A stretch of 64,000 bases of DNA from Asterionella formosa (Eukaryota): contig NKIB01012814.1 in the NCBI GenBank assembly GCA_002256025.1, positions 1 through 64,000 of the forward strand, read 5' to 3'. Every line of letters begins with the position of its first letter. The first letter of the stretch is position 1. Position numbers and translations under genes: made by a program. Shown here one piece after another: positions 1 to 64,000 of this stretch. A model generated the notes under the pieces. It searched no databases. It was not told the origin of the DNA and saw only the letters and a program-made list of their open reading frames with translations.

Positions 1-1054
1 AGGGAAAGAATATTCTTGCTCCCCCCGCCGACGTGGGTGGTTGTGGCATTATGCCCAACTTTACGCGAGCAACCACCGACAACGATCGCGGCGGCATTGA
101 ACTCTTGCTTGGTTTTGTTTTGCCTGCTCATTTTAGGATATTGAGTCCATTAATTCTAAGGCTTTATGGATTCATCAAAGGATTCGGAAATCTTTCTCAT
201 TCTTGGTGGTGGAATTTATTTGGATTTGCACCCAATATGCTCCCTGCTCTTTATTGCGAAGATTTTTATGTACATATAATAGAGGATCACCTAATTATTG
301 TTGTCAATCTTGAGATTAAAAAACAAAACACTTCAATGGTGATACTCAAGCAACGAATTGTTTATTGCATCTACGAGAATGGGCATATATCTGTCGACAT
401 TAAGGTCATGCCTGATATCAAGTTGAAGGATATCCCTTCTCTCCCTCGCGTCGGCATGATGGCAATACTGGACTCGTCGATGTACAACATGATGTATTAT
501 GGACGCGGTCCTGTTGAGAACTACCCTGATCGAAAGGCTGGGACTGAGGTCGGCGTTTACACGTCAACTGCAAAAGACAACGAATTTAATTATATTGTTC
601 CAAGCGAAAATGGTAACAAGAGCAACTGTCGATGGGTTTCTTTTTTTGATAGCACTGGGAGTGGTTTGTGTATCGTGTCTGATATGGAGTCAGATGATCT
701 GAATATTGGGGCTAGTTTGAATAGTCAAATTGAGCTCCAAAATGCGTTGCACACATGTGATCTGGAGCCAAGAGGGAACGGTGAAGGGCCTATCTACGTC
801 AGTATTGATCACAGAATCATGGGCGTTGCTGGTGACGTGAGGTAAGTTCTATTTGGATCGGAAATGTATTCCTGATGTATAACCTCTCCTAGTATGCTTA
901 CGATATTGCATGTATTAGTTGGTTCCCCGCTGTTTATCCAGAGTTTTTGGTCAAGGCCGATCACGAGTTCAATTACAAGTTCTGGCTAGTTCCATTCGAG
1001 CAAATAACGATAGACTCCCTAGTAAAAGTTGCAAAGACCGTTGGAATGAATTGA
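1..1054 (+). CDS. Beta-galactosidase (GH2), C-terminal small-chain domain; 5' part lies outside the window. Exons <1-841 and 919-1054
   Basis: Motifs PNFTRATTDND, LPRVG, YYGRGPVENYPDRK, YIVPSENGNK, IDHRIMGVAGD. A GTAAG..TAG intron at 842-918 restores GDVSWFPAVYPEF and leads to TGA at 1052-1054. Confidence 0.9.
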
Positions 1055-1269
1055 TTTAAGTGAGCGTGCATCATTTTCTCAACAGATGTAATCTAACAGT
1101 ATATTGCTATCTTTTTGACGAACTGCAGCTCCGAAAACCATTCCTCAAATTCTCGTTAGATTGGTAGATATGTGTCTAGCAAATACCTAGTTAGGTTATC
1201 AACATTTCGTTAGGTGACGGACAGAACTACTTTTCTTAATGCAGTTTCACTCGACTTTCAACGAGAAAC

Positions 1270-4200
1270 TCATAATGTCGAACTTTGAGATCCCAACTCA
1301 TTTTGGCGCATATGATCTGATCCGCCAGGCACGGGCCTACTATTTGGAGACACGAAAGATTGTCCTCCTATCACCACGCCTCCTGGGTGTCGTTGATTCG
1401 AAAGATGAGCATGAAATCGCTCTAATAACATGTACTGTTAAAATGCGAAGTGCACATGTGAGAACAAATTAGTGATAGCAATGACGGAAAGTCGCAAAGG
1501 GACGCACCTGTCGTTCGGCAGCTGCCGCCGATTCTTGTTCTGATTGCTCATTTTCCAGCAGAGAAGCCAAGTGTCCATATGATGGCCCATGCGACATGGC
1601 TCCAAGTCTTCCCAACATGCTGCCAGACACACTAAGATCAGGGTCCAGTGTAGATCGGTTAAGCATCCTTTGAAGCTCGGTTGATAGGCCAGCATCAGCG
1701 TAGTGTAGAATACTTAATGCAGCCGAGTTTGGGCTTGGCGATCGAAGGGGCCGAAGCGATGCTTGTGTTGTTGAGGACTGGGTCTCGTCAAAGTCAGGTG
1801 ATGATGCAAATGGTAGTGGAGTAAGCTCTCGCTGTCGTGTTGGCTGCTCTAAGGTAGAAAAATGATTGACCATCGGCGGTGTTCTCATTTGTGAGTCGTT
1901 CTGGATTTGTCTAGCTGGCGTAAGAGGAACCAGAGGGGGCTGTGTCGTTCTTGCCGGAGCCCCGCCGCCGCTGTCTGCCCCTCCTGTTGCTCTAGTAACT
2001 GCAGCTCGTTGCCGTAGATACGATTCATTTAATCGAGAAATTCCACTTGTTATTGCGGGATCAACTCTTTTTGATTGTTGTTCCATCTGGATGAGTGTCT
2101 CCAACTGTTTAGCGGCTGCTTCCATGTGGTGTTCTTGTTCTCGGGCCAAAGCTTCAGCTTCAATCTCTCGAAAATTCTCAAGCCGATCCACAAGGGTTTG
2201 TCCAGACACAGTCGCCTTCCAGCTTGGATGCGTCGCCTTAAAACTGAAAAATGATTTCTCCATTTTTCCCATGAATGCCTTTGGCGTTGGATGGAGTCTG
2301 ATTGCCGCTTCGACGTCATGCATTTCATGAACTGAGGCAGAAATGCTGCCAGATAAATCGGCCTTCCCCATGGTCCTACCCTCCCATGTTTCGTCTCCAA
2401 ACTTGTCAAAGTCAAAGGTAGCATAACCACAAACTTCTCCAGCTCCAGGTACTTCAGCCTTGATGGCCATGACAAATTCGCAAATGGATTCAGCGCATCG
2501 TGGTAACGACACGCAAAGAACAATGGGTGCAAGTATAACTGAAACAACCTCAAATGCAAATAGTTTTGCTTTGTACATGAACATTGCGGAGACTTGGTTA
2601 TATACACTCTTTTCCCAACCGCGCCCATTCCAAATATCAGGAAAGAAATGAGTATGAACTGCAACATGTGAAAGGCAGTTGTCAATCTCGGCAAAAAGGT
2701 TGCGAGTGTATCTGGGGTGAATCTTTGGATCTGGGAGCATAGCCTTTCCTGTCGAGTAAATTACTCCTAGCATGCCGACATACCATAGAAGATTCCAATC
2801 ACCAATCTTGACATGAAGTAAAATAGCATCGTTAATTGCAGCAAAGACCAATAAAACTGCTCCAAGTGAACCACCCAAAAGCGCCAAAATTCGTCCAATG
2901 GTCGTCACAATTTCAGACTGAGTAAAAAGGTTCAAATAATTTTCTGTGGCTTTATATGAAGGCTCAAGGCGACGCTCAAGAAAGTGTGGCAATTCGTTGA
3001 ATTCACGCAGCAACCACTTTGCACTCAGGCTCCATTCTTTTGGGCCCATGTATTGTTTGGTTGACTTCCAATCATAGAGGTTTTGCATGCCAAAGTGAAG
3101 GGTCATGAAGAACAGTAGAAATGGCATAAACACAACATGAGCAATTCCACATAGCATGAATCGTCTCTTGAGAGAAATTGGATCCAAATAAAATGCAGGT
3201 CGAACCAGATACTTGTGATTGAACATGTAGTTCAAGACACAGAAATAGACACTCCATTCCAGTGACTTGGAGAAGAAGGTTCCTGGAATAAGTGGCAAGC
3301 TAAAATCTAACATGTTGCGATTGAATAAGGCAATCAAGAAATTTTCTTTTCGGAGGATACGTTGGGCAATCACCAGGCCATCCAACTCTCCGTTATGAAT
3401 GGCCACTCTGTATTCCCCACTATTCTGTAAGTCCACAATCTTTTGAACTACGTCTCGATCCCATTCAATTGCACCGCCTTCGAGCTTGTGTTGAAAAATT
3501 CCAAGACGCTCTTCAAAGAAGGCTCTTGATTCTAGGGCATCTTTGATTGTGTGTAGAAAGGACCAGACTGCGAAAACTCCGTAGCAGGTAAAGAGAAGGC
3601 AATACAAAATCACAATTGAGTTCCAGAGGCTGAATTTCGAAAATGGGCTAGTAATTAGGTACTCTCCAAATGTTTTTTTGCAGGATGCTTCATTCGTGCA
3701 GCTTGATAATTCGTTCCAATCAACGTAAGCAAACAGAAAAACAGAAAGCGCCAGCGTGAGGAACAGCGACACTAATTCGACGATGCCTTTGCAAAGTATC
3801 GGCATCAATCCTCGATGGTAGTAGTAATTGTAGAGAGACTGTTTAAAAATTAAAAAATGAGAAATCTCGTTGAAAGCGTAAACACAATGTGCCATTACAT
3901 GTCGACGTACCGTGAAGAACAAATCTAAATTAGCAACGGCCCCCCAACCATCTCGTCGGGGCAGGAGCCGAAATCGTTCCAAAAACACGAATTCGCTACG
4001 TCCAGCGCCAAGGTGGCTGCTTCCCGAAGCGAATTCCTCATATCCGTAGACTTGCTCTCCCAGCAACGGATCCGCCCTCGACTCGTCTTGAATCCCAAAA
4101 TCAGCCAGGTTTTGCGGCGGCTGGTCCACGGTGTGAACGGGTCGGTAGATTGCAGCGGAAGCGACCGACCTTAGGTTGGTGGCGGCATTATGCAGAGCTT

Positions 4201-9539: not shown

Positions 9540-12500
9540 GCTGTGGTCCGCCATGATACCCTAACTGTTGGCCTTCCCTCTCTCGCCTCTAATCCCTTTG
9601 CCCCCCCTGTCCGCGCTGGACAACATTGATTGCCCTGATGGACAGTTTTCGTATCTAGAGCACAATGATAACCCTGGTTCAGCTCCCACCCCTCTCAGCT
9701 CGGCCTGCTGGACCGCCCTCTCTACCTCTCACAGTGGGTGTCTTGGCACGCTCCGCCATTCTCTCACTGTCGCCGACAAGTTCTGTCCTGACTCTGGCGC
9801 CTGTGGACATGTTTCCAAACCGCCTCTGTTTCACCGATGACACCCCCCTCTCTTACTACTTCGTCCGTGTGGCCAACAACCACCAGACCCCTGACCTGGG
9901 CAAAGGCACCATCTCCATCCCCCAGCTTGGTGCCACACCTGTTGTCCACCTGACTAACTGTCTCCATGTACCCAACCTCAACATAACCATCCTCCTCTCC
10001 ATGATCCGTGTCCACCATCGCCATGGTCCTGGCTGATGCTACGGGTTGTTTCCTTACATTCCCTACCTTGTTTCTCCCCATGGATGACTCCTCCGACTGT
10101 CTCCTCCCCTATTATCCTGCCCCCATGCCTCCCAGTTCTCCTATGACGACACTCTGGCTCTCCTGTCTCCGCCATGCTCCCTCCGTCCCATGGCTCAACT
10201 TACTCACAAACGCTCATCCATTATCCGCCCCATGATTTGGCCGGTCCACCACCGCGTTTTGCCTGGTGTTCAACCTCTTAGCACAGACCCCTCCCTCCTC
10301 TGCCCTGTCCAATCCCAGTCCCCTCCTCCGCTGTCAACACCTTCCTCTCCCGCTATCATAACATGTGAACGCCCCGAATTTTTTGGCCCTTGCCTCCGCC
10401 GATTCTCTTCCCATGAGCGAGCTGAACCGCTAATTTCGCAATTTTTCTGTGTTCCTTCAAGTGGCTAATCGGATTATTCTCTCTGAAAAATCTGAACCTC
10501 GCCATTGGTGATGTCGTCGACATGAAACGCAACGCGACCCCTCCGGTTATCATCTTCCCCGTCCCACTACCATCCTCCATCGTGTTGGCATTGATATCGG
10601 TTATGGCGATGGCGTCAGCCCTGGTGGCTACCGTTACTGCCTCATGCTGGTTGACCAATTTAGCAGAAAGACGTGATGCTATGGTCTCAAAGACCTTGCC
10701 AGCTTCTTTGTTGACTCCGTTAGGTTCCCACGTGTCCTTCAATTCGACTTCGACCACAAATTCCTTGGTGGCCCAACATACAAGCTCCTTGTATTCAAGG
10801 GCGCCGCCCACGTCAACGCTTCTGCCCCCTATATGCAATCCTAGAATGAGCTTGTTGAATCCCATTGGCGCATCGACGTCTCCTTGGCTCAGTCGTCCCT
10901 TTTGGCCGAGGCCAGTCTTACAGAGCGTTACTGGTTCTGGGCCGTCTGTGAAGCCTCTCTTTGCATGAACATGGTCGCATGCCTCCATGGTACTACCACC
11001 GCATATACTACCGCCTTTGAACTTTTCTATGGCATTAAGCCCGATCTCTGGACCCTCTTTTCATTTGGATGTATTGGTAACTATCGCCGCCCCTATGACA
11101 GCACCAGCCAGGTGGGGGGGGGGGCGCACCAACTTTGAAAGCCAAAGTTTCACTGGCATTGCCATAGGCTGGGCCAACACTGCCAATGGCATGCTGTTTT
11201 GGAACCCCACCCTTAGCCGATTCTGTGTCTTGGCGGATTACACTCTTGATGCCACCCAATCCATTGCTGACCCTTTCCCTGATATCACCAATGATTGTGG
11301 TCTCCACCTCCGGCTGTATACAGACTGCACCACCACTGCCTCAGAACCATACCCCCCTGGCTGCACCATATTTGTCCGCTTAAACACACAGGGCCATGTC
11401 GTGGCTGAAAGCTTAGTTAACTCCATGCCCACCACCTCTGTTCTTGCTTCCTACACCATCGATCTTCTGGATGGTGCCTCCATCAAAACCTCCTTCTCCA
11501 ACCTGATTTCCCCTGCCAAGGCCATCAATCCGGACTTCTCCCACCTCCCCCCTGATTGTCTTGACGGCGACCCCCCGGCTCCTCTCCTTCCCCCTGAGTG
11601 ACTGTCGGTGCCAAAATCACTCTTGCCCTGGATGACACCTTCATTTGGGGTACTACTCTGGACATTGATTATGATTTTGACTTGCTCTTTGTCCGCCGGA
11701 ACTCGGCCGGCCAAATCATTTTCACCAACATAGCGTGCTTGGTGGACCTTCCGTACACCTGGCGCCAGCGCCTCCACGAAGGAACCCTGTTCACTGGCTG
11801 GAACAACCTTCCTCCCCTTGGCCCCTCAACCACCATCCTGGGCAATGGCCATCATGTTTCTGCCGCCACCCTCCACCATCCCTGCCCTTTCACGCACGCT
11901 GGCATGCGCCTTTCTTCCCACCTTCCCCAACCGCCTACCAGGAGGAATATGACTCTCTTTGTGCTCAGCAGACCTTCACCATCATCACCCCAGCCGACCT
12001 CTCCCTCCTTACCTGTAAGGTCCTTACGTGGATGACGGTCCTCACTGTCAAACGTGATGAACTCGGCCACCCCACCTGTGCAAAAGCCCGGATTGTTGTC
12101 TCAGGTAACCTGAAGGACACCTACTGGACCAAGTCAGACATGTATGCGAAAGAATACATTTTTTTCATAAAAGTGTCCGAAAATGGATAAAACATCAGTC
12201 AGGGGAGTTCATGATCATTTCCGCGATGCGAAGCGTAAAGAACAAGCAGTCTATTGTTGAATGGCTTAAAGTATGTCTATAGTAAGCTGTCAAAAGACCT
12301 TATCAAGATTCCATAGAAATATGAATCACGACAATTATTGTGCACATGAAAGTCATTACAAAACTGATGTTGAGGAATTTGTTGCATCTTGAAATGTTGT
12401 ACCTTCTCCAAGAATACTGTCGCTCAGGTTTTCTCATCTATTTCTACAAAACATAGGAAACCTTATCTAGTAGTCAAAGTTATCAAGCTAGTGACTGCGG

Positions 12501-14000
12501 ACTGATTTTAACTTTTTGTTGTCAATACTAGTGCAAAAAAAATTATTATTGAACGATAATCTCGTCTATGTTAGCCTACATACACATGCGAAATAGGAAT
12601 TGTTCATTGTCAATATTGGTGAAGATATTCAAATCCATAATTTCGTCATGGTCAAGTTGGAATTGCTGTCTCATTGACTCCATACCACAGGCTGCTGTAC
12701 AAACACACATGGAGGTACTGCCTGATGGTATCTGGTACCAAGCATGTATACATAATATTTAACGCTATACATACAGAATGTAAAAAGTATATACGAGGTT
12801 TGTTGTATGTATGATGTGTTCCATGTCGAAAAGCTAAGTACATCTGATACATTATGCATCCGATTTCTTGACAAAATGTACAGTAGTACAAATATATATA
12901 TTTATTTTTCGATTTTCAATATACTAAGTAAAAAGAGTCATTGAAAATTTAGTTTGGAAAAGTTTCTATCATTGATAAAACTTATTATTGATTTGCTACA
13001 AATTTAGTCCAAGAAGTAATCCCGAGATCCCCTGACTAACTCATTATGCATTTTCCAACACTTTTATGCAAAAAGTGTAATGGACCACACTTATGCCCCA
13101 GTTCCCAGCCAGGTGTCCCTTCGTCTCCTGATCTTCCTTGTCATCGAATGCCGGCGCTTCATCAGGGCGACTGCTGTCCCCTGCCCCCACCACCAACCTT
13201 GTCTCTTTTCTGGGTTCCTCATTGTCGGCTATCCACCTCTTTACGAAGGCTATCTCCGGGCTTCTTGAACGCTTCGACCTGCTTGACTGTCGCTCTGCCC
13301 CTACGCCCTATCACTCTGGTCTTATATATGATTGTATCGCCCCCACGGGGGATGCCTCCCTCTGCCTGTGCTGCCGTCATCACCCAATATCAATCCCTCA
13401 TTGATGCCTTGAACTGGCTGGCCATCAGTACTACCCGCCCGGACATCATCTCCATGTCTGTCACTCTCCTTGCACAATATGATTCCACAGCTAGCTACTC
13501 CTGCCCACCTCCCATTGGGTGCTAAGCTAGCTACTTGTCCGGCTCTATGGATCTTGGCTTAGCATTCACCTCCCAATCGGCCTCCTCTTACCTCTCTACC
13601 ACCTTTGGGTGGCCGAACGATAACCCCCTCCTTGCCACCTACACTGACGCCAACTGGGGCCCCCAAGACGCCTCCACACCCCTCGCTACCGATCTCATCT
13701 CCCTCCTAGAATGCTGCTCGCTCCTTGGATGCATCAGCACCTTTATTGGCGGCCCCATTGCCTGGCACGTTATCTGGGAACCTTGGGTAAGCTGTCGGTG
13801 GATGAAGGCACCAAAATCACTCTATTTCTCTGCCTTCTCCTCGCAGACCTCCATATGCCCGATTGCCCATCCCACTCCCCCTCTGGAATGATTACCGCGG
13901 GGACGTTGACTGGACCCACCACTGCGCTACAAAGAAGATGCGTCACATAAACATCTGTTACATGGCTGTGCTCAATGCTCATCATCATTCTGAAATCCTG
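9540..14000 (+). mobile_element. Decayed Ty1/Copia retrotransposon pol (protease-integrase-RT-RNase H), interrupted by a MULE insertion
   Basis: In Copia order across frameshifts: DSGACGHMF protease, DIGYGDGVSPGGYRYCLMLVD and YWFWAV..A integrase, VKRDELG..KARIVVSG..YA|PV RT, YTDANWG RNase H. C-rich strand. No LTRs recognised. Confidence 0.88.
12148..13086 (+). mobile_element. Non-autonomous MULE (939 bp), deletion derivative of the 59957->64000 element
   Basis: Left arm matches 59957-60600 and right arm matches 63800-64000. Imperfect TIRs. Flanks ACATGTATGC (12138-12147) and ACACTTATGC (13087-13096) form a 10-bp TSD with 2 mismatches. Removing the element rejoins Copia RT YA-PV. Confidence 0.85.
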
Positions 14001-16099: not shown

Positions 16100-16770
16100 G
16101 TACATTGTACTTCAAAAAAGCTGGCGCAGTCTATGCTTAGTCAGTATTGACCTAATTTGTCATAAGGATGCGTCAAATTTTCGGTGCTTGCTGTGGACTG
16201 ATGACCAGTGCTGTAGCAACCTAAATTCCAATCCATCTTTCTCAACCAATTTGAGGCCAATTTCTATCTAATATTTTATTCGATGCACTCGAAATCAAAG
16301 AAGTCTTCTTGTCGAATGTCGATATGCTCAGAACGAACGTATATTGTCCAAAGGAGGCATCACGATGTGTAAATTTTAGGTGCCTGCTGTGGACTGATGA
16401 CCACTGCTTTAACAACCAAACTTCCAATCTATCTTTCTCTACCAATTCATTGTCAATTTCTATCTAGCATAGTATTCGATTTACACGAGATCAATGCCGT
16501 TATTTCGAATGTCGATATGCTCAGAACAAACATAAATTGATCAAATTGGTCATCAGGATGGTGTGTAAATTTTCGGTGCTTGTGGCTTGATCATTAGTGT
16601 ATTAGCAACAGAAATTCCAAACCATCTTTCTCCACCAATTTAAGGCCGATTTCTATCTAGCATAGTGTTCGATCATGTACACGAAATCAATGCCATCTGG
16701 TAGAATGATGATATGCTCAGAACGATCATGTATTGATAAATGGAGGCATCAGGATGTGTAGATGGCGATT
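16100..16770 (+). repeat. Tandem array B, ~196-bp unit, about 3.5 copies
   Basis: AAATTTT(C/A)GGTGC at about 16175, 16371, 16567; GATATGCTCAGAAC in each unit. Inverted larger copy at 55590-57245. Confidence 0.85.
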
Positions 16771-17119
16771 GTGACACTTCTCATTTTTGATTTACTACCA
16801 CAGGATGTGCTGGTATGCCGTGATGATATTTAGTACATCAGCAGGGGCGCACCAAAACTCAAAGCTATTATTCTCTTCCAAATTGCATCCATCTTCTAAA
16901 CTGCTAAGAGTTTTATTGGGCAAATCAGACGTCAGCAAATATTTTTGGAGTGCATTGACTGGTGGTGTTCAGAAAAGTGCGAAATATTGCGAAAAATAGA
17001 GGTTATGGAGTGGTTGAATTCAATGAAGCTGATAGTCCTCATCTCCTTGGCCCTTGCCTTTACAACCAATTTTTTATTGCTACAGTTATCAATATTGATG
17101 TAATCTAGCCGATCGGAAA

Positions 17120-17800
17120 AGGAGAATGCCATCGCGGCACATCTCAATTTTGACTCACTATGGCAACATACAATGAATGTTAAAATATGCAACAGCTGTT
17201 CCTTAACGAATTTACGAATTCAATTGTTGTCAGCTACTCATCCTTTGCTTCTTTTTCTATATTGTGCTTGCTTAAGTTATCGCTGTGCTTGCTTAAGTTA
17301 TCGCTGTGCTTGCTAAAGTTATCGCTTCAGACTATTGCTAGCTGCTCCAAACCGGAGAAGGACATTACGGCACATCTCAATTTCAACTCACTATGGCGAC
17401 ATGCTTTGAATGTTAAAATATGCAACAGCTGTTTCTAAACAATTTTACGAATTCAATCGATGACAGCTGCTCAACCTTCACTCCTTTTTCTATATTGTAC
17501 TTGTTAGAGTTAGCGCTTTAGTCTATTTGTAGCCTCTCCAAAAAGGAGACGGCCATTGCGGCACATCTCAATTTCGACTCACTACAGCGACATGCATAAA
17601 AAAATTAAAATTATGCAACAGTTGTTTCTTTAACGAATTAACGAATTAAATTGTTGTCAGCTACTCATACTTTCCTTCTTTTTCTATGTTGTGCTTGCCA
17701 AAGTTATCGCTGTGGACTATTTGTAGCTGCTCCGAAACGGAGAAGGCTATTGCAGCACATCTCAATTTTGACTCACTACAGCGACATGCATTGAATGTTA
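17120..17800 (+). repeat. Tandem array A, ~192-bp unit, about 3.5 copies; one unit has a 21-bp triplication
   Basis: GCACATCTCAATTT..ACTCACTA at about 17137, 17370, 17561, 17755. TGTGCTTGCTTAAGTTATCGC x3 at about 17263-17325. Inverted copy at 54590-55225. Confidence 0.85.
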
Positions 17801-26853: not shown

Positions 26854-27498
26854 GCGGTCGGTCGCGCATGAGATTGACAAATGACACTTCATCATCAAGC
26901 TCTAGAAGCCAGTCGTGGTACTCAGACAGATTATCGTGGACCTTGCCCGGTACAAACTGAAGGTACACATAGCTACTTGGGGTGCCTGGGGCATTTGTTT
27001 TCAGAACCGCCATACACAATGCGGTCGAGCTGGTTGTATTGCTGGTCGTTTTAATGGCTGTGGACGTTCCGGTTTCGGTGGCCATAGAAATTTTGGTGAT
27101 CTTGGGGGCGGTTGGAGCGCAAGGGAGTCCTAGCTACAGAAAGCTACTGACATTTCTAACCCTGTTCCTGTTCCACTTGCTCGTATGTTGAACACGTGGG
27201 GTCATAACAATGAGGTACTGTGCCACGTGCCATCCCTACAGAGAATACATCAACCCAGGAAATTTCAGTGGTCACAAACCCAACTGCAGGTCAGTTAGTG
27301 GCGTTTGTCCCTACCACGCAACAGCGGAATGCTGATTGCCATCACAGAGCGAGGTATGAGCAAAACTAGGGATGCTATTCATGATGATCAATAGAGCGTG
27401 TCTCGCATCAGTCATCACCTGTATAATATTGTTTATTTACAGGGTAATTAAATTGTTGACACCGCCGTTGCCGTAACACGAAAAATGCATAAATGTAT

Positions 27499-28145
27499 GA
27501 AAGAAAACAATTTTGCATAAAAGTGTCTCAAAATGCATAAACTGTCAGTCAGAGGAGATCGTGATTATTTGTTCAATGCGAATTTTCTATTCGCGTTAAG
27601 AACAAGCAGTGTATTGTTGAATGTCTGTATGTATGTCTATATTAAAGTGCGAAATGACCTAATCAAGATTCCATGGATATATGAACCATGACAACTAGTG
27701 CGTACATGAAATTTACTACAAAATCGATGTCGAGGGATTTTCTTGTATTTTGAGATGTTGTGCTCTCTCCGAGATTTCTATTGCTCCAAGTTTTCTCATC
27801 CATTTCTACAGAAGATAGCTAGAAATAATGATCTAACAGAGGTTATCAAGCTAGTCACCTCGGACTCAACGATGTCTCTACTTTGTTCGCATCCTCAAAA
27901 CTGAGCAAACGACGACCAAAAACAACTTCCAGGAGCAGCGATTTCAACTTTTTGCTGTCAATATTGCAGCAAAAAAATTATTATTGAAAGATTATCTCGT
28001 CAATGTTAGTCTACCTATACATGCGAAATAGGAATTGTTCGTTGTCAATATTAATGCAGCTATTCAGTCCAATAATTGCGTCATGGTCGAGATGGATTTG
28101 CTGTCTCATCGTTCCCCTACTTCTGCAGTACAAGCACACATGTAG
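27499..28145 (+). mobile_element. MULE left arm (TIR plus subterminal region)
   Basis: GAAAGAAAACAATTTTGCATAAAAGTGTC.. is colinear with 12148-12720 and 59957-60600. Confidence 0.8.
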
Positions 28146-28299
28146 TACCCCCGGTGTGGAATGTATGCCAAGCATGTATAATAAACACTGCTATATATAC
28201 GGAAAGTATTAAGTATATCTGTTTCTACCGGTAGGACTAAACGTACCTAGTAGCATGTAGTACATGGCTGACACAGCACGTAATTTAACCCTGTAGGTA

Positions 28300-29139: not shown

Positions 29140-29800
29140 AATTGCCTATTTGCACAAAAGTGTTGTAATATGCACACTACTACGTTACTCAAAGGAATTC
29201 GTGATTATTTCTGCAATACCAAGTTTCTAGTCGTGTATACAAATGTCTAGTGTATTGTTAGATGTCTGCATATATGTCTAGTACATTCAACTCTAAAATG
29301 ACCTACTCCATAATTCCATAGAAATACAAGCCACGACAATTAGTACGTACATGAAACTCGGTACAAAATTATACCTTGAGGTATTTTCTTGCATTTTGAG
29401 ATGTTGTGCTCTCTCCGAAATTACTGTCGCTCAATTTTTCTCGTTAATTTGTACATTAGATAGAAAAAATCATTTTCTAAAAGTTATTAAGCTAGTCATC
29501 ACGGACTCAACGATGTCTCGTTTTTGTTCATATCTTGAAAACTGAGCAAACGACGATGAAAACAAATCCTAGCGGCAATTTCTAATTTCTGTTGTCAATT
29601 TTAGTGCAAAATTTTTTATCATTGAACGATTATCTCATCTATGTTAAGCTAGTTATACCTCCGAAATAGCAAAACTTCAATGTCAATTTTCAATGAGAAA
29701 TTCAGTCCAATATTTTCGTCATGGTCAATGCGGAGTTGCTGTCTCATCATTCCCATGCCACAGGAGTACAAAATCAAGTTCACTTATGTATTTCACGCAT
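29140..29800 (+). mobile_element. Diverged MULE left arm
   Basis: Shares TTCCATAGAAATA, CCACGACAATTAGT, AAGCTAGTCATCACGGACTCAACGATGTCTC and AAAACTGAGCAAACGACG with the other arms. Confidence 0.7.
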
Positions 29801-53800: not shown

Positions 53801-54589
53801 GAAGTTGAAGCGTTGGTGGAGAAGTTTTGGAACATGATTTCATTCTCACAAGAATGAAGGATGAATGCAACAACAAGTCGTCAAAAGTGCGCAATCTTTC
53901 ACGTTTTTGATCAGAACTTTTTGTGGACCATTGGGTAAAGGTGTTTGGCAGGAATTCCCTGACCTTTTCTTTGAAAGGGGTTCGATCCCTATTAAAAAAT
54001 GATAACCCTAACGAAGAGTACACTGGTTTCAAACCGAATCTCAAACATTCTAAACATTATAAAACAAGTACATCTAAGACGCCATTTACGGCACAGTTTC
54101 AAATTTATGTCTAAAGTGATGTATTTATGCTACTTTTCTAAAATATTATGTTACTTTGAAATATTATGTTACTTTTTCCCTAATTTATTCGGGTCAAACA
54201 AAAATGTATTTCACTTATCAAATAATTATGTGATCATACCAATAATTATGTGTGTTCGTGACAATATATGTTGACCAACAAGCCATCACGACAGTATAAA
54301 AGCGAAATTATGCTGCTCCACTTCAATATTATGCTGGCTTCGATATATAATGAACGAAAGAGTTGCCAATTCCGATTCACTTATTATTTTTTCTGCTCCA
54401 ACATATTCCTTTGATCTCAACTGGCAAATAACAACACATGCAAGAGGAAGATTCACACAGTAGAATTCAGCGCACGTAGTAGTAGGTGCTGTTGTAGAAA
54501 CATTGTTTAGTCATTGTTGATTGTAGAGTTCACAATAGCCTGCCAGATTAGAAATAAAGCACTGTTGGTCATCATTGAGCATCGTTGAG

Positions 54590-55225
54590 CATTGCATGTC
54601 GCCGTAGTGAGTCGAAATTGAGATGTGCAACAATGGCCTTCTCCTCTTCGGAGCAGCCACATATAGTCTACAACGATAACTCTAGAAAGTTAAATATAGA
54701 AAAGGAGCAGAAGATGAGCAGCTGTCAACGACTGAAGTCGTAAAATCGTTTATTTACAGCTGTTGCATATTTTAACCTTGCATGTCGCCGTGGTGAGTCA
54801 AAATTGAGATGTGCCGCAATGGCCCTCTCCTTTTCGGAGCGGCTACAAATAGTCTACAGCGATAACTCTGGCAAGAAGTACAATGTATAAAAGTACCAAA
54901 GGATGAGTAGCTGTCAACGATTGACTTCGTAAATTTGTTTAGAAACAGCTGTAGCATACTACTTCAACATTCAATGCATGTCGCTGTAGTCAGTCGAAAT
55001 TGAGATGTGCCGCAATTGCCTTCTCCGGTTTGGAGGAGCTAGCGAAATTCTGAAGCGATAACTTTAGCAATCACAAAATAGAAAAATAAGCAAAGGATGA
55101 GTAGCTGACAAAAATTGAATTCGTAAACTGGTTAAGAAACAGCTGTTGCATATTTTAACATTCATTATATGTCGCCATAGTGAGTCAAAATTGAGATGTG
55201 GCTGCCCCAATGGCATTCTCCTTTC
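54590..55225 (-). repeat. Tandem array A (~190-bp unit), inverted copy of 17120-17800
   Basis: AAATTGAGATGTG recurs at about 54615, 54800, 54997, 55188. Confidence 0.85.
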
Positions 55226-55589
55226 CGATCGGCTAGTAGATTACATCTATATTGATAACTGTAGCAATAACAAATTGGTCGTAAACGCAATGGCCAAGTA
55301 GATGAGGACTATCAACTTCATTGAATTCAACCACTCCATACTAGCTAACCTGTATTTTTCGCAATATTTCGCACGTTTTCAGCACACCACCAGTCAATAC
55401 ACTCCAAAAGTACTTTCTAATGTCTGATTTGACCAATAAAACACTTAGCAATTTAGGAGATGGATGCAATTTGGTATAGAATAATAGCTTTGAGTTTTGG
55501 GGCATCCCTGCTGATGTCCTAACTATCATCACGGCATAATAGTACATCCTATGGTAGTAAATCAAAAATGAGACGTGCAACAATCGCCA

Positions 55590-57245
55590 TCTACAAAGTC
55601 TGATGCCTCCTTTGATCAATATATGTTTGTTATGAGTATATCGAAATTCACCTTGATGGCATTGATCTTTTGTACATCGAATACTATGCTGTATTGAAAT
55701 CAGCCTTAAAATCATGGTGGAGCAAGATGGTTTGGAATTTCCGTTGCAACAGCACCTGATGATCAGTCCAACATCACCGAAAATTCGCAAAACTTACAAA
55801 TCCTGATGCCTCCTTTGATCAATATATGTTCGTTCTCAGAATATCAACATTCGCCATGACGGCATTGATCTCGTGTACATCGAATACTATTCTGGATATT
55901 AATTGGCCTTAAATTGGTGGACAAAGATGGCTTGGAATTGTTGTTGCCATAGCACTGATGATCAGTCCACAAGCATCCGAAAATTTACACATCCTGATTC
56001 TTCTCAGAATATCGAGATTCGCCATGACTACATTGATCTCGTGTACATCGAATACATTACTGAATAGAAATCGGCCTTAAATTGGTGGAGAAAGATGGTT
56101 TGGAATTTCCATTGCAACAGCACTTGTCCTTAGGAATTTTTGTTGCCACAGCACTGATGATAAGCCATTCCACAAGCATCCGAAAATTTAAGCATCCTGA
56201 TGACTAACTTGATCAATATATGCTTGTTCTGGGAATATTGTTGTTTTAAATGAAGGCAATGATCTTGTGTACATCGAATAATATGCTGGATACTAGAAAT
56301 CGGCCTCAAATTGGTGGAGAAAGATGGTAAGGGATTTTTGTTGCCACAGCACTGATGTTCAGTCAAGAAGCATACGAAATTCACAAAACTTACACATCCT
56401 GATGCCTTCGTTGATCAATATATGTTTGTTCTGATCATATCAACATTCAACCTGACTGCATTGATCTTGTGTACATCTAATACTATGCTAGAGGGAAGCC
56501 GGCCAAAATTGGTTGCGAAAGATTGTTTGTATCCTACATCATTGATGATCATTCCACAAGCACCGACATTTTACACACATCCTAATGACCAATTTGATCG
56601 ATATATGTTCGTTCTAAGCATATCGCCATTAACAATGATGGCACTGATCTCGTGTACATCGAATACTAGCTATGCGAGATAGAAATCGGCCTCAAATCGG
56701 TAGAGAAATATGTTTTGGAATTTTGGCTGCTACGGCACCACTTGTAATGCATCAGTCCACAGCAAGCACCGAAATTTTACAATCCTGATGCCTCCATTGA
56801 TCAACATATGTTTGTTCTGAGCATATAAACATTCGAACTGACGGCATTGATTTCGTGTACATGATCGAACACTATGCTAGATGGAAATCTGCCTTAAATT
56901 GGATGAGAAGGGTTGTTTGGAATTTTTGTTGCTACTGCACTTAATGATCAGGCCACAAGCACTGAAAACTTACACAACATCCTGATGACCAACATTCTAA
57001 ATAACGGCATTGATCTAGTGTACATCGAATACTATGCTAGATAGAAATTGACAATGAATTGGTAGAGAAAGATAGGTTGGAAGTTTGGTTGTTAAAGCAG
57101 TGGTCATCAGTCCACAGCAGGCACCTAAAATTTTAGAATCCTGACGCCTCCTTTGGACAAAAAACGTTCGTTCTGAGCGTATCGACATTCGACAAGGAGC
57201 CTCTGATCTCGGGTACATCGAATAATATATAAGATAGAAATTGGC
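55590..57245 (-). repeat. Tandem array B (~195-bp unit, about 8-9 copies), inverted and expanded relative to 16100-16770
   Basis: Repeated GTGTACATCGAATA, AAATTGGTGGA, ATCCTGATG and GATCAATATATG. Confidence 0.88.
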
Positions 57246-57359
57246 AATTGTTTCAAAAACTTCTAGAAGTGAGGTGGCATGAAATAACAAATAGAGTTTT
57301 AGTTTTACATGTTCTAACAAATCGACAACAAAAACAACATTTACAACTAAGAGAAAACA

Positions 57360-58335: not shown

Positions 58336-60852
58336 CCTGGCATTTGCTCTTGAAAAACCGTGATGCTGTTCACAGCTTGTTGATTCTGCCCTTCTCCATC
58401 GTATTCACTCAATCTTAGCTGCATGTTGTATCATCATGCTGTTTTGTCACTTCAGTTTTTCGCATCATGTGTTGCTTGAGATCCTTCATTTCACTAAGTG
58501 TATGCATGACAAGGAACATGAAAAGCATTTGCTCTTGACTTGTTACCATCAATGGATCCTTCCCTTCTCTTCTAAGCCGCAAGTATCATTGTGCTGTATT
58601 ATCACTTTTGTTTTCCGTGTCATCATGTGTGATGATCCTTCATTTCAGGAGCAAAGTGGCTGTATGCATTACAAGGAACATGAAAACATGATTTCAAATG
58701 TTTCAGCCATGAATACATATATGTAAAGATTTTTAAGAAGTTTAAATGTATATATAGTTGAACATTTGCATAGTTTTAAACACGCTCATTATACAGCACA
58801 TCCTGTGTATACTAATATCAATTTGATTATACATAATTCAAATATATACAATGCATGATGAGTTCATAGTGTTCCACGACCTGTTGAATTTTTTCAATTT
58901 GTTCTGTGTCAATTCTTGTACCTACAAGTCAGTGGCTGATTTAATTAAGCCCCTTAATAAACAAGAGTCATCACCAATTTTTTAAATGGTCGAAATCATA
59001 CATTTATGTAAATAGACATATTGACCAAAATTCACATGGCCTACCGGTAGTACTGTATACTTGCTAGGAATTATTTTTTATCATGGAAATGCCACAATAG
59101 TGCAGCGGGAAACTGAAAATGCTCATGTGTTTAGGATCATTCGATCATATTTTTAAGATCAATTAATCCTGATTCCTGAAAATAAATTTTGATCTTTTAT
59201 TTTTTCATCAACGACACCGTCCATCATATGATCAATATGTTATCATCAAAGGTATAGGATAAATGAATCAAAATTGATTGATTAAAGATCATAGTTTATA
59301 CCGGAGTAGTTGCTCATGCATGCAATCCCTTCCCCCCTGTATTTAATTACGGAAGTGATAACCCCCAAGCTACCAAATTTTTATGTCTTGTAAGAATTAT
59401 CGCAGCATGCATGCATACATGACTCCTACTCGTATATATAATGCGGATATGATGACCACCAGACTCCCAATCCTATAGGTATCATTGAGGAGAAAACTTA
59501 TTAGGATTCTCTGTCTTTGCCCTCGCCCGTTCGGCATTCTACCATTGCTTCCTCTCAATCAATACTAGCTAGTAGTATAGCTAATGAAAACCGTAATTAG
59601 ATGAAATGTGACTTCCGGTTTCTAATATTTTAAATTGTTGCACTACTGAAACTTGAATCCATAGATGGGCATTCAACTTGTGCTTGCTTCTTGCATTTTT
59701 GCAGTATAGACTGGCTGGTGATCGATAGGCCAAAGTGTCTTGCTTTTCATGAACATCTACAAAGTACTAGTGCTTTTGTCGAGGTTTGAGTCTAAATCCA
59801 ACTGCTATCATCCATTGAACTATTCCAGATACATCAAAGAATACGCTCCTGTCTTCAAAGGTAAGGAACTAGTACGATGACAAAGGAAATCTGATGAGAC
59901 ACGAAAATTAGGAAACCAGAGTCACTCTGTTACTATAAATAGACAGTCTCATGCTTGAAAGAATACAATTTTTGCATTAAAGTGTCGGAAAATGCATAAA
60001 CCGTCAGTCAGGGGAGTTTGTGATCATTTCCGCGATGCGAAGTTTTTATCCGTGTAAAGAGCAAGCCGTCTATTGTTAAATGGCTTAAAGTATATCTATA
60101 GTAAGCTGTCAAATGACCTTATCAAGATTCCATAGAAATATGAACCACGACAATTAGTGTGTACATGAAAGTCACTTCAAATTGACGTAGAGGAATTTGT
60201 TGCATCTTGAAATGTTGTTCCCTCTCCGAGAATACTGTTGCTCTGGTTTTTCTCATCTATTTCTACAAAACATAGGAAACCTTATCTAGTCAAAGTTATC
60301 TAGCTCATCACCGCGGACTCAACACTGTCGCTACTTTGGTCGTATCTTCAAAACTGAGCAAATGACGACCAAAAACAACTGTCAGCGCCGATTTTAACTT
60401 TTTTTGTCAATACCAGTGCAAAAAGTTTTATTATTGAACGATAATTTTGTTTATGTCAGTCTGCATAAACGTGCGAAATAGGAGTTGTTCATTGTCAATA
60501 TTCGTGAAGATATTCAAACCCATAATTTCGTCATGGTCAAGATGGAGTTGCTGACTCATCGACCCCATACCACAGGCAGCTGTACAAACACACATGTAAG
60601 TACTGGTAGTACATAACCAGTAGTATGTATGCAAAGCATATTACTTATGCATGCCAAGGATATTGAATATTCATCACTCTATACATATGTTGTGGTACCA
60701 GAAGTTGGAATTAACATGTAATCCTGTAGGTCTGTCATTACTACATACTCGGCAGTAAAAGTCCACATCATACATCATATCGGCATTATATTTGGAATTG
60801 TTGTGTGTATCCATGAATTACTTTTTGTCAAAAGTCGCTCCACAAATACGAA

Positions 60853-62352
60853 ATGTCTAGTTCTTCCAACTCATCTCACAATTCACCCTCCTCTGAGGAG
60901 GATGATAGCATCTTGCAGCGTTCAGGAGATAGTTTGTCAGATGATAGTGCTTCCTCTTCTGGGAAAAAGGGGTAGACGCCATTAACTTTTCCATCCTGCC
61001 ATTGTCACCTGCAGGCGACACTCCAGCATGCACTGACAATTTTCCTCTTCCCCATGGCGACACTCCTTGGTGCTGGGAACCGGACTCACCAGACTTATCA
61101 TACAGACAATGACTGATTATACATTAGCTTGTCGCAAGGCTGTCAAGAAGATTTGGCCAAATGCCGAATTTACATTTGGTATGTGCTCTTATCATGCCTG
61201 GAATGCATGGGTAAAGAAGCATAGAGGAAAGTTCAAGAAATACGACAAAAACAAGAAGAGAATGGGTGAAGACTTCGAGGCGTATAAAAGAAGTCCCTGG
61301 ATACAGCTAGTTCCAATCCTTCACGATTTGATGATTTTCAAGTGGATCAACACATACAAGGAAAAGGAAGTTGCAACTGCGTAGTTGACACAATGGGGTC
61401 CCACCATTCACACCAGAATTGAATTGAACATTTCCAATCTACTTCGTGGTGGTTTGCCTGCACACAACAACAATTCAGAGGGCATCAACAGTGGTGATAA
61501 ATCATTCTTTGACCATAGGAAGCCTTTAACAGCTTACTTCATTCATAACATGACTTACATGTTAGAGGATTGTTCCAAAGGGGATCTATCATTTTGCTCC
61601 ACTTTACACTCATCGGTACACTCGATAAATTTCTACAAGTCTATTTATAAGCTTCTTGAGAAAAGCCAAAATGGGGAAGCTACATTTCTAACAGTGACAT
61701 TTGATTTCAAGTGTGATTCAATTAGAATCGGAGAGGGTTCATTGTTGATTGCGACATCGTCATTTGTGGACCTAAATATTATGTCCTCTATGCAAACAAT
61801 GCAGTCCCAGAGTACTGCAACTGCATTGTCACAGCACAGTCAACTATCCCAATCTCGAAAGAGATATCTTTATATTGGGAACACAGAATCAGTTACTGCA
61901 CTAACTGTTATGCAATTGATAAAGAAGAACAAAATGCATGATGAATACAAGAGCCTTCTCCGAAATCCTGAACAGTATTCTGCTAACCACACATTTGATG
62001 ATGTCCTTTCCCTCACCTGCAGGTTTCACCTTATTGTATTGAACCTATTGTTTCCAAGAGTGAAAACTATGATGTTGCTGTTACTAACTTTTTAGAAATT
62101 TTGGGAGCATGTGGATTGGGTTCCATTTCGATTAATAGCTTGAAAGCAATGGGCAATGAAGGCCTCATATCTTGCCATTGTCATGCGTATTTAGCAAACG
62201 CGTGGTGTAAACATGCATGTGCTTTTGCATTTGACCATGGAATTATTTCTACCTTTCCAAAGACAATGCATCCAAAGCCTAGTATTAAGAATAAAGGTTC
62301 TGGATGAATCAAAAATGTGAAATGTGTAGGTAACTTAGATATTAAAGGATGA
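60853..62352 (+). pseudogene. MULE transposase C-terminal half gene (second D, CxxH, E, SWIM), disrupted
   Basis: MSSSSNSS leader, WEPD/TMTDYTLACRKAVKKIWPNAEFTFGMCSYHAW, GLPAHNNNSEGIN, SWIM CHCHAYLANAWCKH. Confidence 0.8.
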
Positions 62353-62420
62353 TAACGTGGAGGTAACTTAGATATCAAAGGATGATAACGTGGAAGTAAC
62401 TTAGATATTAATAGATGATA
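62331..62420. repeat. 33-bp tandem repeat, about 3 copies
   Basis: GTAACTTAGATAT(T/C)AAAGGATGATAACGTGGA repeated. Confidence 0.85.
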
Positions 62421-62468
62421 AATTTAGAAAAGCACTAGTAGTAGTGCTGATTATAAAAGTTATCATTA

Positions 62469-63692
62469 CTAGATAGGAATATCATGAGTTTTCCTATATC
62501 TAACGAGCTCTTCCAAGGCAGACTGAATCGACGCAAATATGAATTTTTTGCGCTTTGTGGTGATCATGGCTTATCACTCCATATGCAATCGTTTTTGTTT
62601 GTTGAGCCAAGTTGGTTGTAATAACTGGAAAAACGCCGTTTCCTTCTTGTGTGAGTCTGTAAGATGCATCAGCAGCAAAGAAGATTGGATTGCCCCAGAA
62701 TCGCTGTCAGTACGCATTCAGCAACAAATTCTCGGTTGTTAGTACAGCTACCAAAGAGTTGTCTTCTGGTCGACAGTCTATGCCAAGTAGGTACATCGAA
62801 TGTTGCGTGAAATTAAAGATATTTCCCTTCTTATACGATTCAAGGACAGCAGCGATTCCTCCCCAGTTATTGCCTTGACCATTTATTAGCCCAACCGATT
62901 TATTGCGTAAGCGAGTGAGTTGTCCTTTAATGCACTTTTTCAACTTTTCATCAACAGGAATTCCTTTTGCCCTATAGCCTCAGCAATGTAGCGTGCTGGT
63001 TTCATGTTCAATTTATTCGGGGAAGTAATTAACACAGACTGATAGTATTTGTGAATACGTTTCCTTATGCCATCCTTGACAACATTATGTTGTGTGTGTT
63101 TTAAGTCACCAATCTCAATTGTGGTCAAATTTGTTTTGGTATTGAATAATTCCCGAATTACAAAGGGACATTTACAGGAATGGAAAAATGTGCATCTTTT
63201 CTTTGTAACTCTAATGCCGTCAGCTCTAAGGTATGGACGATCTTTTGATAACCACATGAGACTCCCGCCACCTCCAAAATTCCGTTTTCCCAAATCGCAA
63301 AGGATACCTTCAACCTCCCCAATCTTGACATCCGTAGCAAAATAATTATTCACCCACACCTCGACTTTTGTATCATTTGGTGGATTGAAGAAACACAGTC
63401 ATCAAGTGCTAAAAGAACCTCGCTTTCCAAGATACCAGGCTCTTCTGTGACAGTTCCCATTACACCTTCGATTTCTTCGATATCACAGCTGTTGAAATCT
63501 TCCTCGTTACCCTCTTCAAATTTAGGCTATTTTTCGATACCAGAACTGTCAGTACTATCACTGTCGCTATGACTGGGACTGTGATTGGGAATGTCATCTT
63601 CGTCAACCACTTCTTCGCTTTCTTCTGATATCTTCCATCCCAGTGGTTTTCAAACCACTGGGTCGGGATGTAAACAAGTTTCGTCTCAACAT
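62469..63692 (-). pseudogene. MULE transposase N-terminal half gene (WRKY/GCM1-like zinc finger plus first catalytic D), disrupted
   Basis: Acidic leader; RCTFFHSCKCPFVIRE..KHTQH; VLTTENLLLNAY*QRFWGNPIFFAADASYRLTQEGNGVFPVITT..IAYGVIS; ends FIFASIQSALEELVRYRKTHDIPI then TAG TAA TGA. Confidence 0.75.
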
Positions 63693-64000
63693 GGAGGAGC
63701 GTCTATAATTTAATTTAATACCGGTATGTAGTTTTCTCCTCTATATCAACCCAAAAATTCCTTCCTTGGCGGTATATCAATGTGGGTACCGGTACATCGC
63801 TATGCATCCGATTTCTTGACAAAATGTACAGTAGTACAAATATATATTTATTTTTCGATATTCAATATACTAAGTAAAAAGAGTCATTGATAATTTAGTT
63901 AGGAAAAGTTTTAATCATTGATAGAACTTATTATTGAATTGCTACAAATTTAGTCAAAAAAAGTAATCCCGAGTTCCCCTGACTAACTCATTATGCATTT

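Follow-up and report, generated by a model that had tools for sequence, protein, structure and literature searches.

A Mutator-Like Element of Asterionella formosa With a Transposase Core Divided Between Two Convergent Genes

Organization of the Two Genes in the Window

The window analyzed here is a stretch of 64,000 nucleotides (nt) from Asterionella formosa (positions 1 to 64,000 of the forward strand of contig NKIB01012814.1, assembly GCA_002256025.1), in which positions 59957 to 64000 correspond to a single Mutator-like element of about 4 kb, bounded by terminal inverted repeats (TIRs) and carrying two head-on coding regions between its ends. The first-pass annotation of this sequence had read the parts of one D-D-E transposase from the two strands, namely an acidic leader, a C..C..H..H finger, FAADASYRL and a triple stop on the minus strand (N half), and a separate ATG, a Ser/Asp-rich leader, WEP, the second aspartate, CxxH, NNNSE and SWIM on the plus strand (C half). 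All of these features were recovered at their places, as listed below. It had also placed both genes between one pair of TIRs, of which the layout and the left TIR were confirmed, but the right TIR is represented in the window by just its inner 40 nt.

62463..63692, minus strand: N-half gene; hidden Markov model (HMM) matches at 1e-29 to 1e-34, 62-65% identity to the intact proteins P0003 and P0004
~63353-63649, minus strand: acidic leader of the N half
63087-63194, minus strand: WRKY-like C..C..H..H finger (C at 63192-63194, 63174-63176 and 63168-63170; H at 63096-63098 and 63087-63089)
62668-62670, minus strand: first Asp, in 'AADAS' ('FFAADASYRL')
62463-62471, minus strand: stops TAG TAA TGA after the N-half tail '...RKTHDIPI'
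60853..62307, plus strand: C-half gene; HMM matches at 1e-29 to 1e-53, 55% identity to the intact 522-amino-acid (aa) protein P0008
60853, plus strand: ATG of the C half, followed by a Ser/Asp-rich leader and 'FPLP..WCWEP'
61115-61117, plus strand: second Asp, in 'MTDY'
61184-61186 (C) and 61193-61195 (H), plus strand: CxxH
61478-61480, plus strand: Glu, in 'NNNSEG'
62173-62214, plus strand: SWIM cysteines and histidine
62305-62307, plus strand: stop TGA of the C half

The HMMs built from relatives of the two genes matched the N and C pieces at 1e-29 to 1e-53 and matched nowhere else in the 64 kb, which excludes a chance resemblance, and the three acidic residues and the CxxH motif are all present in the window copy. 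A Pfam scan of the single open pieces of this copy gave no match, so that the assignment to the Mutator-like elements (MULEs) rests on the intact relatives described below. The N half is interrupted by a TAG (63527-63529) and a TGA (62707-62709), by frame changes at 63353-63398 and near its start, by two extra bases near 62973 and by one extra base at 62545/62546, while the C half shows a frame change near 60948-60975, one base missing after 61094, a TAG at 61382-61384 and five extra bases near 62032. The stop codons of the two genes are 161 nt apart.

Other Copies of the Element in Public Sequencing Runs

Copies of the element were examined in contigs from public sequencing runs, among them X1, a DNA run that may come from the window's own sample; X2; X17, a library of poly(A) RNA prepared from the X1 sample; and X18, an unrelated metatranscriptome. 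In X1, 12117 contigs fell on the element, indicating a very abundant family. Most lesions of the window copy were missing from these other copies. The TAG near 61383 is replaced by TGG (A>G) in nearly all the depth of X1, X2 and X18; one T is added after 61094 in all the depth of X2 and in part of that of X1 and X18; two bases fewer are found at 62973 in about half of X1 and all of X17; and five bases fewer at 62032 in X2, X17 and X18, with one contig only in X1. The one-base slip in an A-run proposed by the first-pass annotation proved to be real, since X2, X18 and part of X1 are one base shorter at 62545/62546.

The spacer between the genes is covered by contigs of two further studies and bridged by one of them, a contig of X18 in which position 62352 is joined to 62440, with 19 other letters replacing the tandem repeats of the window. 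Among the X1 joints listed, no strand-changing junction, the sign expected of a fused copy, was found. As a separate observation, the five extra bases at 62032 that break the C half occur in nearly all X1 copies and in no contig of X2, X17 or X18, and most copies in the X1 genome may descend from an already defective master.

Relatives Carrying One Half Only

Protein searches were performed with P0002, the window N part translated across its single in-frame stop, and with P0001, the window C part. The former retrieved four proteins of 328-377 aa with 47-65% identity, all four ending where the window N half ends. A profile built from these four matched 48 proteins, 47 of which were confirmed by an HMM re-scan; every one of the 47 that reaches the profile end carries a tail of 0-9 residues, and no C-half match was found within any of them. 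The clean end noted in the first-pass annotation recurs in the relatives, all those long enough to reach this alignment position stopping there. When viral contigs were scanned with the N-half profile, 158 patterns matched, none of them encoding a relative.

With the C-half query, 1.84 billion representatives were searched, of which 162 matched at E<=1e-3. Of the 89 C-half cluster representatives that cover the second aspartate, 88 lack an N-half domain and 81 begin with methionine. Full-length C-half proteins measure 400-580 aa and open with a variable acidic or Ser-rich leader, followed by a conserved 'PRxD..FPLP..WxWEP' before the second aspartate, in keeping with the dedicated leader noted for the C half of the window.

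Gene Order in Metagenome Loci

Metagenome contigs scanned with the N-half profile yielded 53 loci, each of which was searched in six frames with the HMMs. The N match reaches the profile end in 44 loci, and a stop codon follows within 0-24 nt in 43 of these, the remaining one running off its contig. In 12 of the 53 loci (L005, L006, L007, L013, L017, L018, L019, L021, L023, L036, L041 and L043) the N half on the plus strand faces a C half on the minus strand, tail to tail, with approximately 55 to 830 nt between the open frames. A C half downstream of the N half on the same strand was found in none of the 53 loci; where at least 1200 nt lie downstream of the N half (n = 14), the C half is on the opposite strand in eight loci and on the same strand in none. 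Two groups of near-copies were recognized among the convergent loci (L018/L019 and L006/L007/L013/L017), and the others share <60% protein identity, with a guanine-cytosine content of 46-54% compared to 39% for the window element. This puts the number of independent convergent lineages, apart from that of the window, at six to eight or more.

Locus L023 is a nearly whole element, bracketed by inverted repeats (1-201 and 3474-3674) that are 98% complementary, the left arm being truncated by the contig end. Both of its genes start just inside the 201-nt arms; its N half contains a GT..AG intron and yet stops at the usual place, and its C half is an intact open frame of 618 codons. Locus L013 shows, beside a complete convergent junction, a second partial N-half match (997-1545, minus strand) that overlaps the 3' end of the C half and may be a nested or rearranged copy.

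Fused Relatives and Assignment to the MULE Superfamily

Two contiguous relatives, the cluster of P0099 (859 aa) and P0240 (865 aa), present the identical domain order in one chain. P0099 aligns with the N-half protein P0004 over residues 83-407 (2e-22) and with the C-half protein P0008 over residues 445-852 (3e-28), and both fused proteins are approximately 26% identical to P0004 and P0008; the opening stretch of the C half ('REDNDLF...W/F..P') is present in them as a linker. In a joint alignment of fused, N and C sequences with a reduced set of C rows, both Asp columns aligned. A quick tree of 62 C parts, midpoint-rooted and built without an outgroup, grouped the fused proteins and the fragment P0149 in one clade (support 99), so that a single change suffices to account for them. 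Midpoint rooting puts this clade inside the split forms, beside P0089 and P0092 (98), but because the tree has no outgroup it favors neither an ancestral fused form nor a re-fusion. With respect to contiguous homologs, no close relative is fused and no metagenome locus carries both halves in one direction of reading with the C half second, but the distant P0099 and P0240 do exist.

The Pfam profile of the MULE transposase (PF10551) is divided in the same manner. Positions 2-67 are matched by 9 of 20 N halves (27.1 bits for the best, with an E of 5.8e-6, where the cut-off is 27.6), and 3 of 35 C halves match with a best E of 0.028, the two at E<=0.05 covering positions 56-97. Besides, four N halves match PF21056 (ZSWIM1-3_RNaseH-like), of which P0206 alone passes the threshold (28.3 vs 27.2), and 6 of 35 C halves match the SWIM family PF04434 (best 19.5 bits vs a cut-off of 19.6), with the CxC...CxH pattern conserved at >=90%. 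The N-terminal C..C..H..H pattern is likewise conserved across the N halves. The Pfam comparison that the first-pass annotation had proposed for each half thus recovered a divided MULE profile and SWIM, but at scores below the cut-offs and with no match for the window pieces, and the MULE-like character of the minus-strand frame was borne out by its intact relatives at the same sub-threshold level. Language-model look-alikes of both halves belong to MULE, ZSWIM1-3, FLYWCH and SWIM clusters and are regarded as leads only.

Structural comparison was attempted with the fused protein. The AlphaFold2 model of P0099 (mean predicted local distance difference test score, pLDDT, 67.9; predicted TM-score, pTM, 0.44) shows strands at residues 355-357, 368-376 and 382-390, a helix at 395-416, a loop at 416-447, a strand at 448-452, a helix at 457-470 and a strand at 478-482. 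The order of elements in this model is that of an RNase H-like fold, and the split point lies within the low-confidence loop 416-447. Foldseek with the model gave no match at E<=0.001. The DNA-binding domain of AtWRKY18 was matched with a probability of 0.99 at an E of 0.23 (target TM 0.53, root-mean-square deviation 2.9, 58 columns), a weak lead, and the ISCth4 transposase (IS256 family) is another (Foldseek E 0.2; Z 5.5 over residues 484-558). In a wide VIA fold search, for which an 859-residue model is a poor query, AFT2 (Z 6.1) and WRKY33 (Z 5.3) do not stand out, the best score (Z 7.0) belonging to an unrelated small binder. No relative was found by a profile search of the PDB sequences.

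The division of an RNase H-like core between its first and second aspartate into non-overlapping, complementary proteins, as had been suggested for the window, is therefore what both the fused P0099 and the Pfam MULE profile display. The element has the D-D-E residues, the CxxH motif and the TIRs of the Mutator superfamily, but it is filed as a MULE variant and not as an ordinary member, because its transposase is not a single polypeptide. It also departs from MuDR-type elements, in which the second convergent gene is a non-transposase accessory, since here that gene supplies the second Asp and the Glu of the transposase together with CxxH and SWIM.

Catalytic Residues, Constraint and Predicted Association of the Halves

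The catalytic residues are invariant on both sides of the split, with D278 conserved in 20 of 20 N halves and D132, C155, H158 and E253 in 35 of 35 C halves. The ratio of nonsynonymous to synonymous substitution rates (dN/dS) of the N half is 0.13-0.26 in pairs with dS of 0.39-1.2 and rises to 0.37-0.58 between near-copies, as is understandable because copies are expected to decay after insertion. The per-half selection analysis called for by the first-pass annotation consequently speaks for constraint on the N half, but the C-half data, being either short or saturated, carry little weight.

When residues 60-343 of P0004 and 95-522 of P0008 were co-folded, an ipSAE of 0.72 was obtained, compared with 0.00 for the best of three controls, which passes a mark reached by 51 of 78 solved complexes and by 2 of 108 mismatched pairs; three runs had at least 68% of contacts in common. 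The confidently predicted interface includes N-half residues 271-278 (the strand ending at the first Asp) and C-half residues 125-132 (the strand ending at the second Asp) and 242-255 (around the Glu). A co-fold of the two halves had been called for by the first-pass annotation; in the prediction obtained, the first-Asp strand is paired with the second-Asp strand and the Glu is placed at the interface.

Ends, Deletion Derivatives and Repeats in the Window

The remaining features of the element and its derivatives are as follows.

59957..60030, plus strand: left TIR, imperfect core '...TTTTTGCATAAAAGTGT..GAAAATGCATAA..GTCAGTCAGGGGA', from an alignment of four left and two right ends
59957..60605, plus strand: left subterminal region, kept in internally deleted derivatives that resemble miniature inverted-repeat transposable elements; 87-89% identity to window positions 12148-12720
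63801..64000, minus strand: right subterminal region and inner 40 nt of the right TIR (inverted repeat I1); 93.6% identity to window positions 12853-13053
12148..13075, plus strand: non-autonomous, internally deleted copy (0.9 kb) of the same element, both ends present and both genes gone
62321..62419, plus strand: three tandem 33-nt units (direct-repeat family D1) in the spacer between the two stop codons; not in all copies

The imperfect TIR is common to the two right and four left ends aligned in the window. Inverted repeat I1 pairs positions 59990-60029 with 63961-64000 (40 nt, 75% complementary), the tip of the right TIR lying beyond the window end; read from the derivative at 12148-13075, the right TIR continues for approximately 30 nt more. 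This derivative keeps the left 650 nt (87-89%) and the right 200 nt (94%) of the element, and deletion joints of the same type were found in X1 (60609->63868 and 60610->63801), where the depth at the element ends is 2-10 times that of the interior. No matching direct repeat, as expected of a target-site duplication, flanks 12148-13075 at any end point tried, its exact tips being uncertain, and the flanks of the main copy are not comparable in this respect since its right tip falls outside the window.

Two further segments, 27498-28218 and 29149-29771, resemble the left 650 nt of the element (78% and 73-75%, respectively) in the same orientation, about 1 kb apart. Neither a right end nor a coding part lies close to them, and they may represent non-autonomous relatives of greater age and divergence. 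The 64-kb window is rich in repeats well outside the element, including large degenerate tandem-repeat arrays at 16145-17800 and 54579-57250 (periods of approximately 190-400 nt, mutually similar in inverted orientation at 70-83%) and three other dispersed families of 0.7-1 kb with 85-88% identity (5439-6321/34139-35658, 8651-9539/44697-45567 and 25892-26852/57361-58335).

Discussion

At the level of gene architecture, it is close to certain from the sequences compared that the transposase core of this family is conserved as a split between two complementary convergent genes, and that this split is an inherited design recurring in distant relatives and not an accident. The assembly of the two chains into one active D-D-E site is a further step, to which the predicted complex and the conservation of the halves lend support, and we consider it the best explanation of the data and a probable one. 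That the family constitutes a widespread lineage of eukaryotic DNA transposons dependent on a DDE transposase of two obligate chains, each expressed from one end of the element, of which one brings the first Asp and the other the second Asp and the Glu, is a broader statement, toward which we lean with more reserve.

Two explanations would deny that the split is real. The picture seen in the window could be produced by a private inversion with one breakpoint in the gene and the other behind its stop, or by an assembly error, in one dead copy of a family whose normal gene is contiguous, and both the heavy decay of the window copy and the existence of fused relatives could be read in that way. 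Such an accident is nevertheless highly improbable, considering that the same order recurs at the 12 convergent metagenome loci, that 43 of 44 loci, and every protein relative extending that far, keep the N stop, that nearly all C-half representatives (88/89) stand without an N part, and that the spacer is covered, and once bridged, by contigs from other studies. The argument of the first-pass annotation against a one-off inversion gains from at least six to eight convergent lineages, and the fused relatives are no sign of a private inversion here, since they share only about 26% identity and make up a single small clade. Repeats and element fragments abound in the window, as would suit two unrelated truncated elements nested tail to tail by chance, but the probability of this is negligible. 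The N stop and the C start coincide both in the fused relatives and in the Pfam profile, the pairing recurs in 12 loci and the nearly perfect inverted repeats of L023 bracket both genes, so that the halves do not come from unrelated elements.

The other two explanations accept the genes and question their joint action. Truncated transposases act as repressors in other families, and one or both products could be regulators or DNA-binding helpers, with a contiguous transposase encoded elsewhere performing the catalysis; fused relatives exist and some loci carry an N half and no C half. We regard this as unlikely, because a pure regulator needs none of the Asp, Asp and Glu residues that are invariant over both halves. 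Moreover, the fused clade is small (two clusters, compared to 88 of 89 C-half representatives without an N part) and distant (about 26% identity to P0004 and P0008, which among the intact relatives are nearest to the halves of this family), and the predicted co-fold sets the three catalytic segments at the interface. The halves could also be joined by RNA trans-splicing or protein splicing into a single-chain transposase, a possibility to which their exact complementarity, the 'GTAATG' that overlaps the N stop in the window and the fact that separate mRNA ends were not seen in the RNA-library or metagenome contigs all lend something. This is very unlikely, given that the N tail and stop are conserved in relatives with widely different DNA, that no intein-like insert appears in the N or C alignment, and that the C half has its own Met and a leader highly variable in length and sequence, where a joining signal should be conserved.

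Several observations weigh against a working two-chain enzyme and temper the confidence placed in it. The window copy is dead, both of its genes being broken by stops and frame changes (about ten in all), a decay that the first-pass annotation had already recognized. The RNA-library contigs of X17 and X18 cover both halves, but this is not evidence for two separate mRNAs, because these libraries can contain DNA and the contigs give no strand, ends or level. X17 has no cover at 62390-62524 or 63335-64000, which is not evidence for transcript ends, and no poly(A) or poly(T) was found at the ends of the 53 metagenome contigs. The C-half dN/dS values come from 60-120 codons with dS saturated or near zero; the partner in the co-fold has a pLDDT of 47-53, leaving its own fold uncertain; and, the chains being parts of one fold, the score may have passed through resemblance to single-chain RNase H-like folds of solved structure. 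Every Pfam MULE match is below the curated cut-off, although this is expected because each half carries only part of the profile. Contiguous relatives exist, and a fused enzyme could act in trans. In six of the 14 loci with long downstream sequence (L014, L030-L032, L045 and L047) no C half was found even with a richer profile; 1.3-7 kb lie downstream of the N half in these loci, L030-L032 being near-identical and containing only the last 130 residues of the N half. These loci may represent solo copies, degraded copies or something of another kind. Finally, L011 (139-2824) has both halves on one strand, with the C half as a separate gene about 340 nt upstream of the N half, an order unlike that of the 12 convergent loci.

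In the two-chain mechanism that we propose, the N gene, located just inside one TIR, encodes a product of approximately 330-380 aa with the acidic leader, the WRKY-like zinc finger and the first part of the core, that is strands 1-3 and helix 1 with the first Asp, ending in the loop after helix 1. The C gene, just inside the other TIR, encodes a product of approximately 430-550 aa that begins with its own Met and a variable acidic leader and continues with the remaining core (strand 4 carrying the second Asp, then CxxH and the Glu), a helical region and SWIM. The two proteins would bind each other, strand 1 of N running alongside strand 4 of C, to build one D-D-E site out of two chains, and the heterodimer would move the element. 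Such an arrangement could have originated when the 3' half of a contiguous gene was inverted, with breakpoints in the loop between helix 1 and strand 4 and behind the stop, and a single inversion may have toggled the family to or from the fused state. Both genes of MuDR are transcribed from its TIRs, and the inverted half would in the same way have come under expression from the other TIR.

Known two-protein systems differ from this proposal in where the catalytic fold resides. The TnsA and TnsB proteins of Tn7 are two different element-encoded proteins needed for the chemistry of transposition, each with a complete catalytic fold, whereas here one fold and one active site would come from two chains. 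In the two-ORF (open reading frame) elements PIF/Harbinger and in the orfA-orfB elements IS3/IS1, functions are also distributed over two reading frames, but either a single ORF holds the entire DDE domain, or ribosomal frameshifting joins the two frames along one strand. To our knowledge, every described DDE transposase and integrase has its catalytic triad in one chain. In the literature covered, Repbase and subscription journals aside, no description was found of a MULE or other DDE transposase with a catalytic core divided between two genes, and the work on heteromeric transposases concerned, among the matches listed, Tn7-type or bacterial elements. The phrase 'split into two' in the accessible part of a barley paper (PMC9168764) refers to RepeatMasker fragments.

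As far as the parts of the sources available to us describe them, MuDR of maize and other two-gene MULEs are TIR-bounded and combine a zinc finger, D-D-E with CxxH and often SWIM (Dupeyron et al., PMC6446971; Gao et al., PMC9168764). The present element resembles MuDR in being TIR-bounded with two convergent genes, each starting beside one TIR, but in MuDR (mudrA, mudrB) the whole transposase is MURA and the second gene is no part of it, while here the second gene contributes the C-terminal 60% of the transposase. The fused P0099 and P0240 share the domains and order of the split halves in one polypeptide. An active MULE of Phaeodactylum tricornutum (3707 bp, with TIRs and two ORFs) has been seen jumping, and the accessible text describes one ORF with MULE and SWIM and another as an 'E3 ubiquitin ligase-like' zinc-finger protein said to be diatom-specific (Abbriano et al., bioRxiv 10.1101/2023.01.02.522487). 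Compared by this description only, it is likewise algal, of similar size and has two ORFs, but its authors see an accessory ligase and no split.

The division between strand 3/helix 1 and strand 4 is kept among relatives that are just 25-35% identical. If the two-chain reading is true, the RNase H-like fold would tolerate assembly from two chains in vivo, and the element would be a natural 'split-enzyme' transposase, of interest for the development of controllable genome-engineering tools. It would also represent a new mode of self-regulation, because both TIR-proximal genes must be expressed and transposition would require transcription to be open at the two ends simultaneously. In practice, both halves will be overlooked or wrongly named by annotation pipelines, because neither reaches the Pfam MULE cut-off, and the 'accessory' ORFs reported in algal MULEs may merit re-examination.

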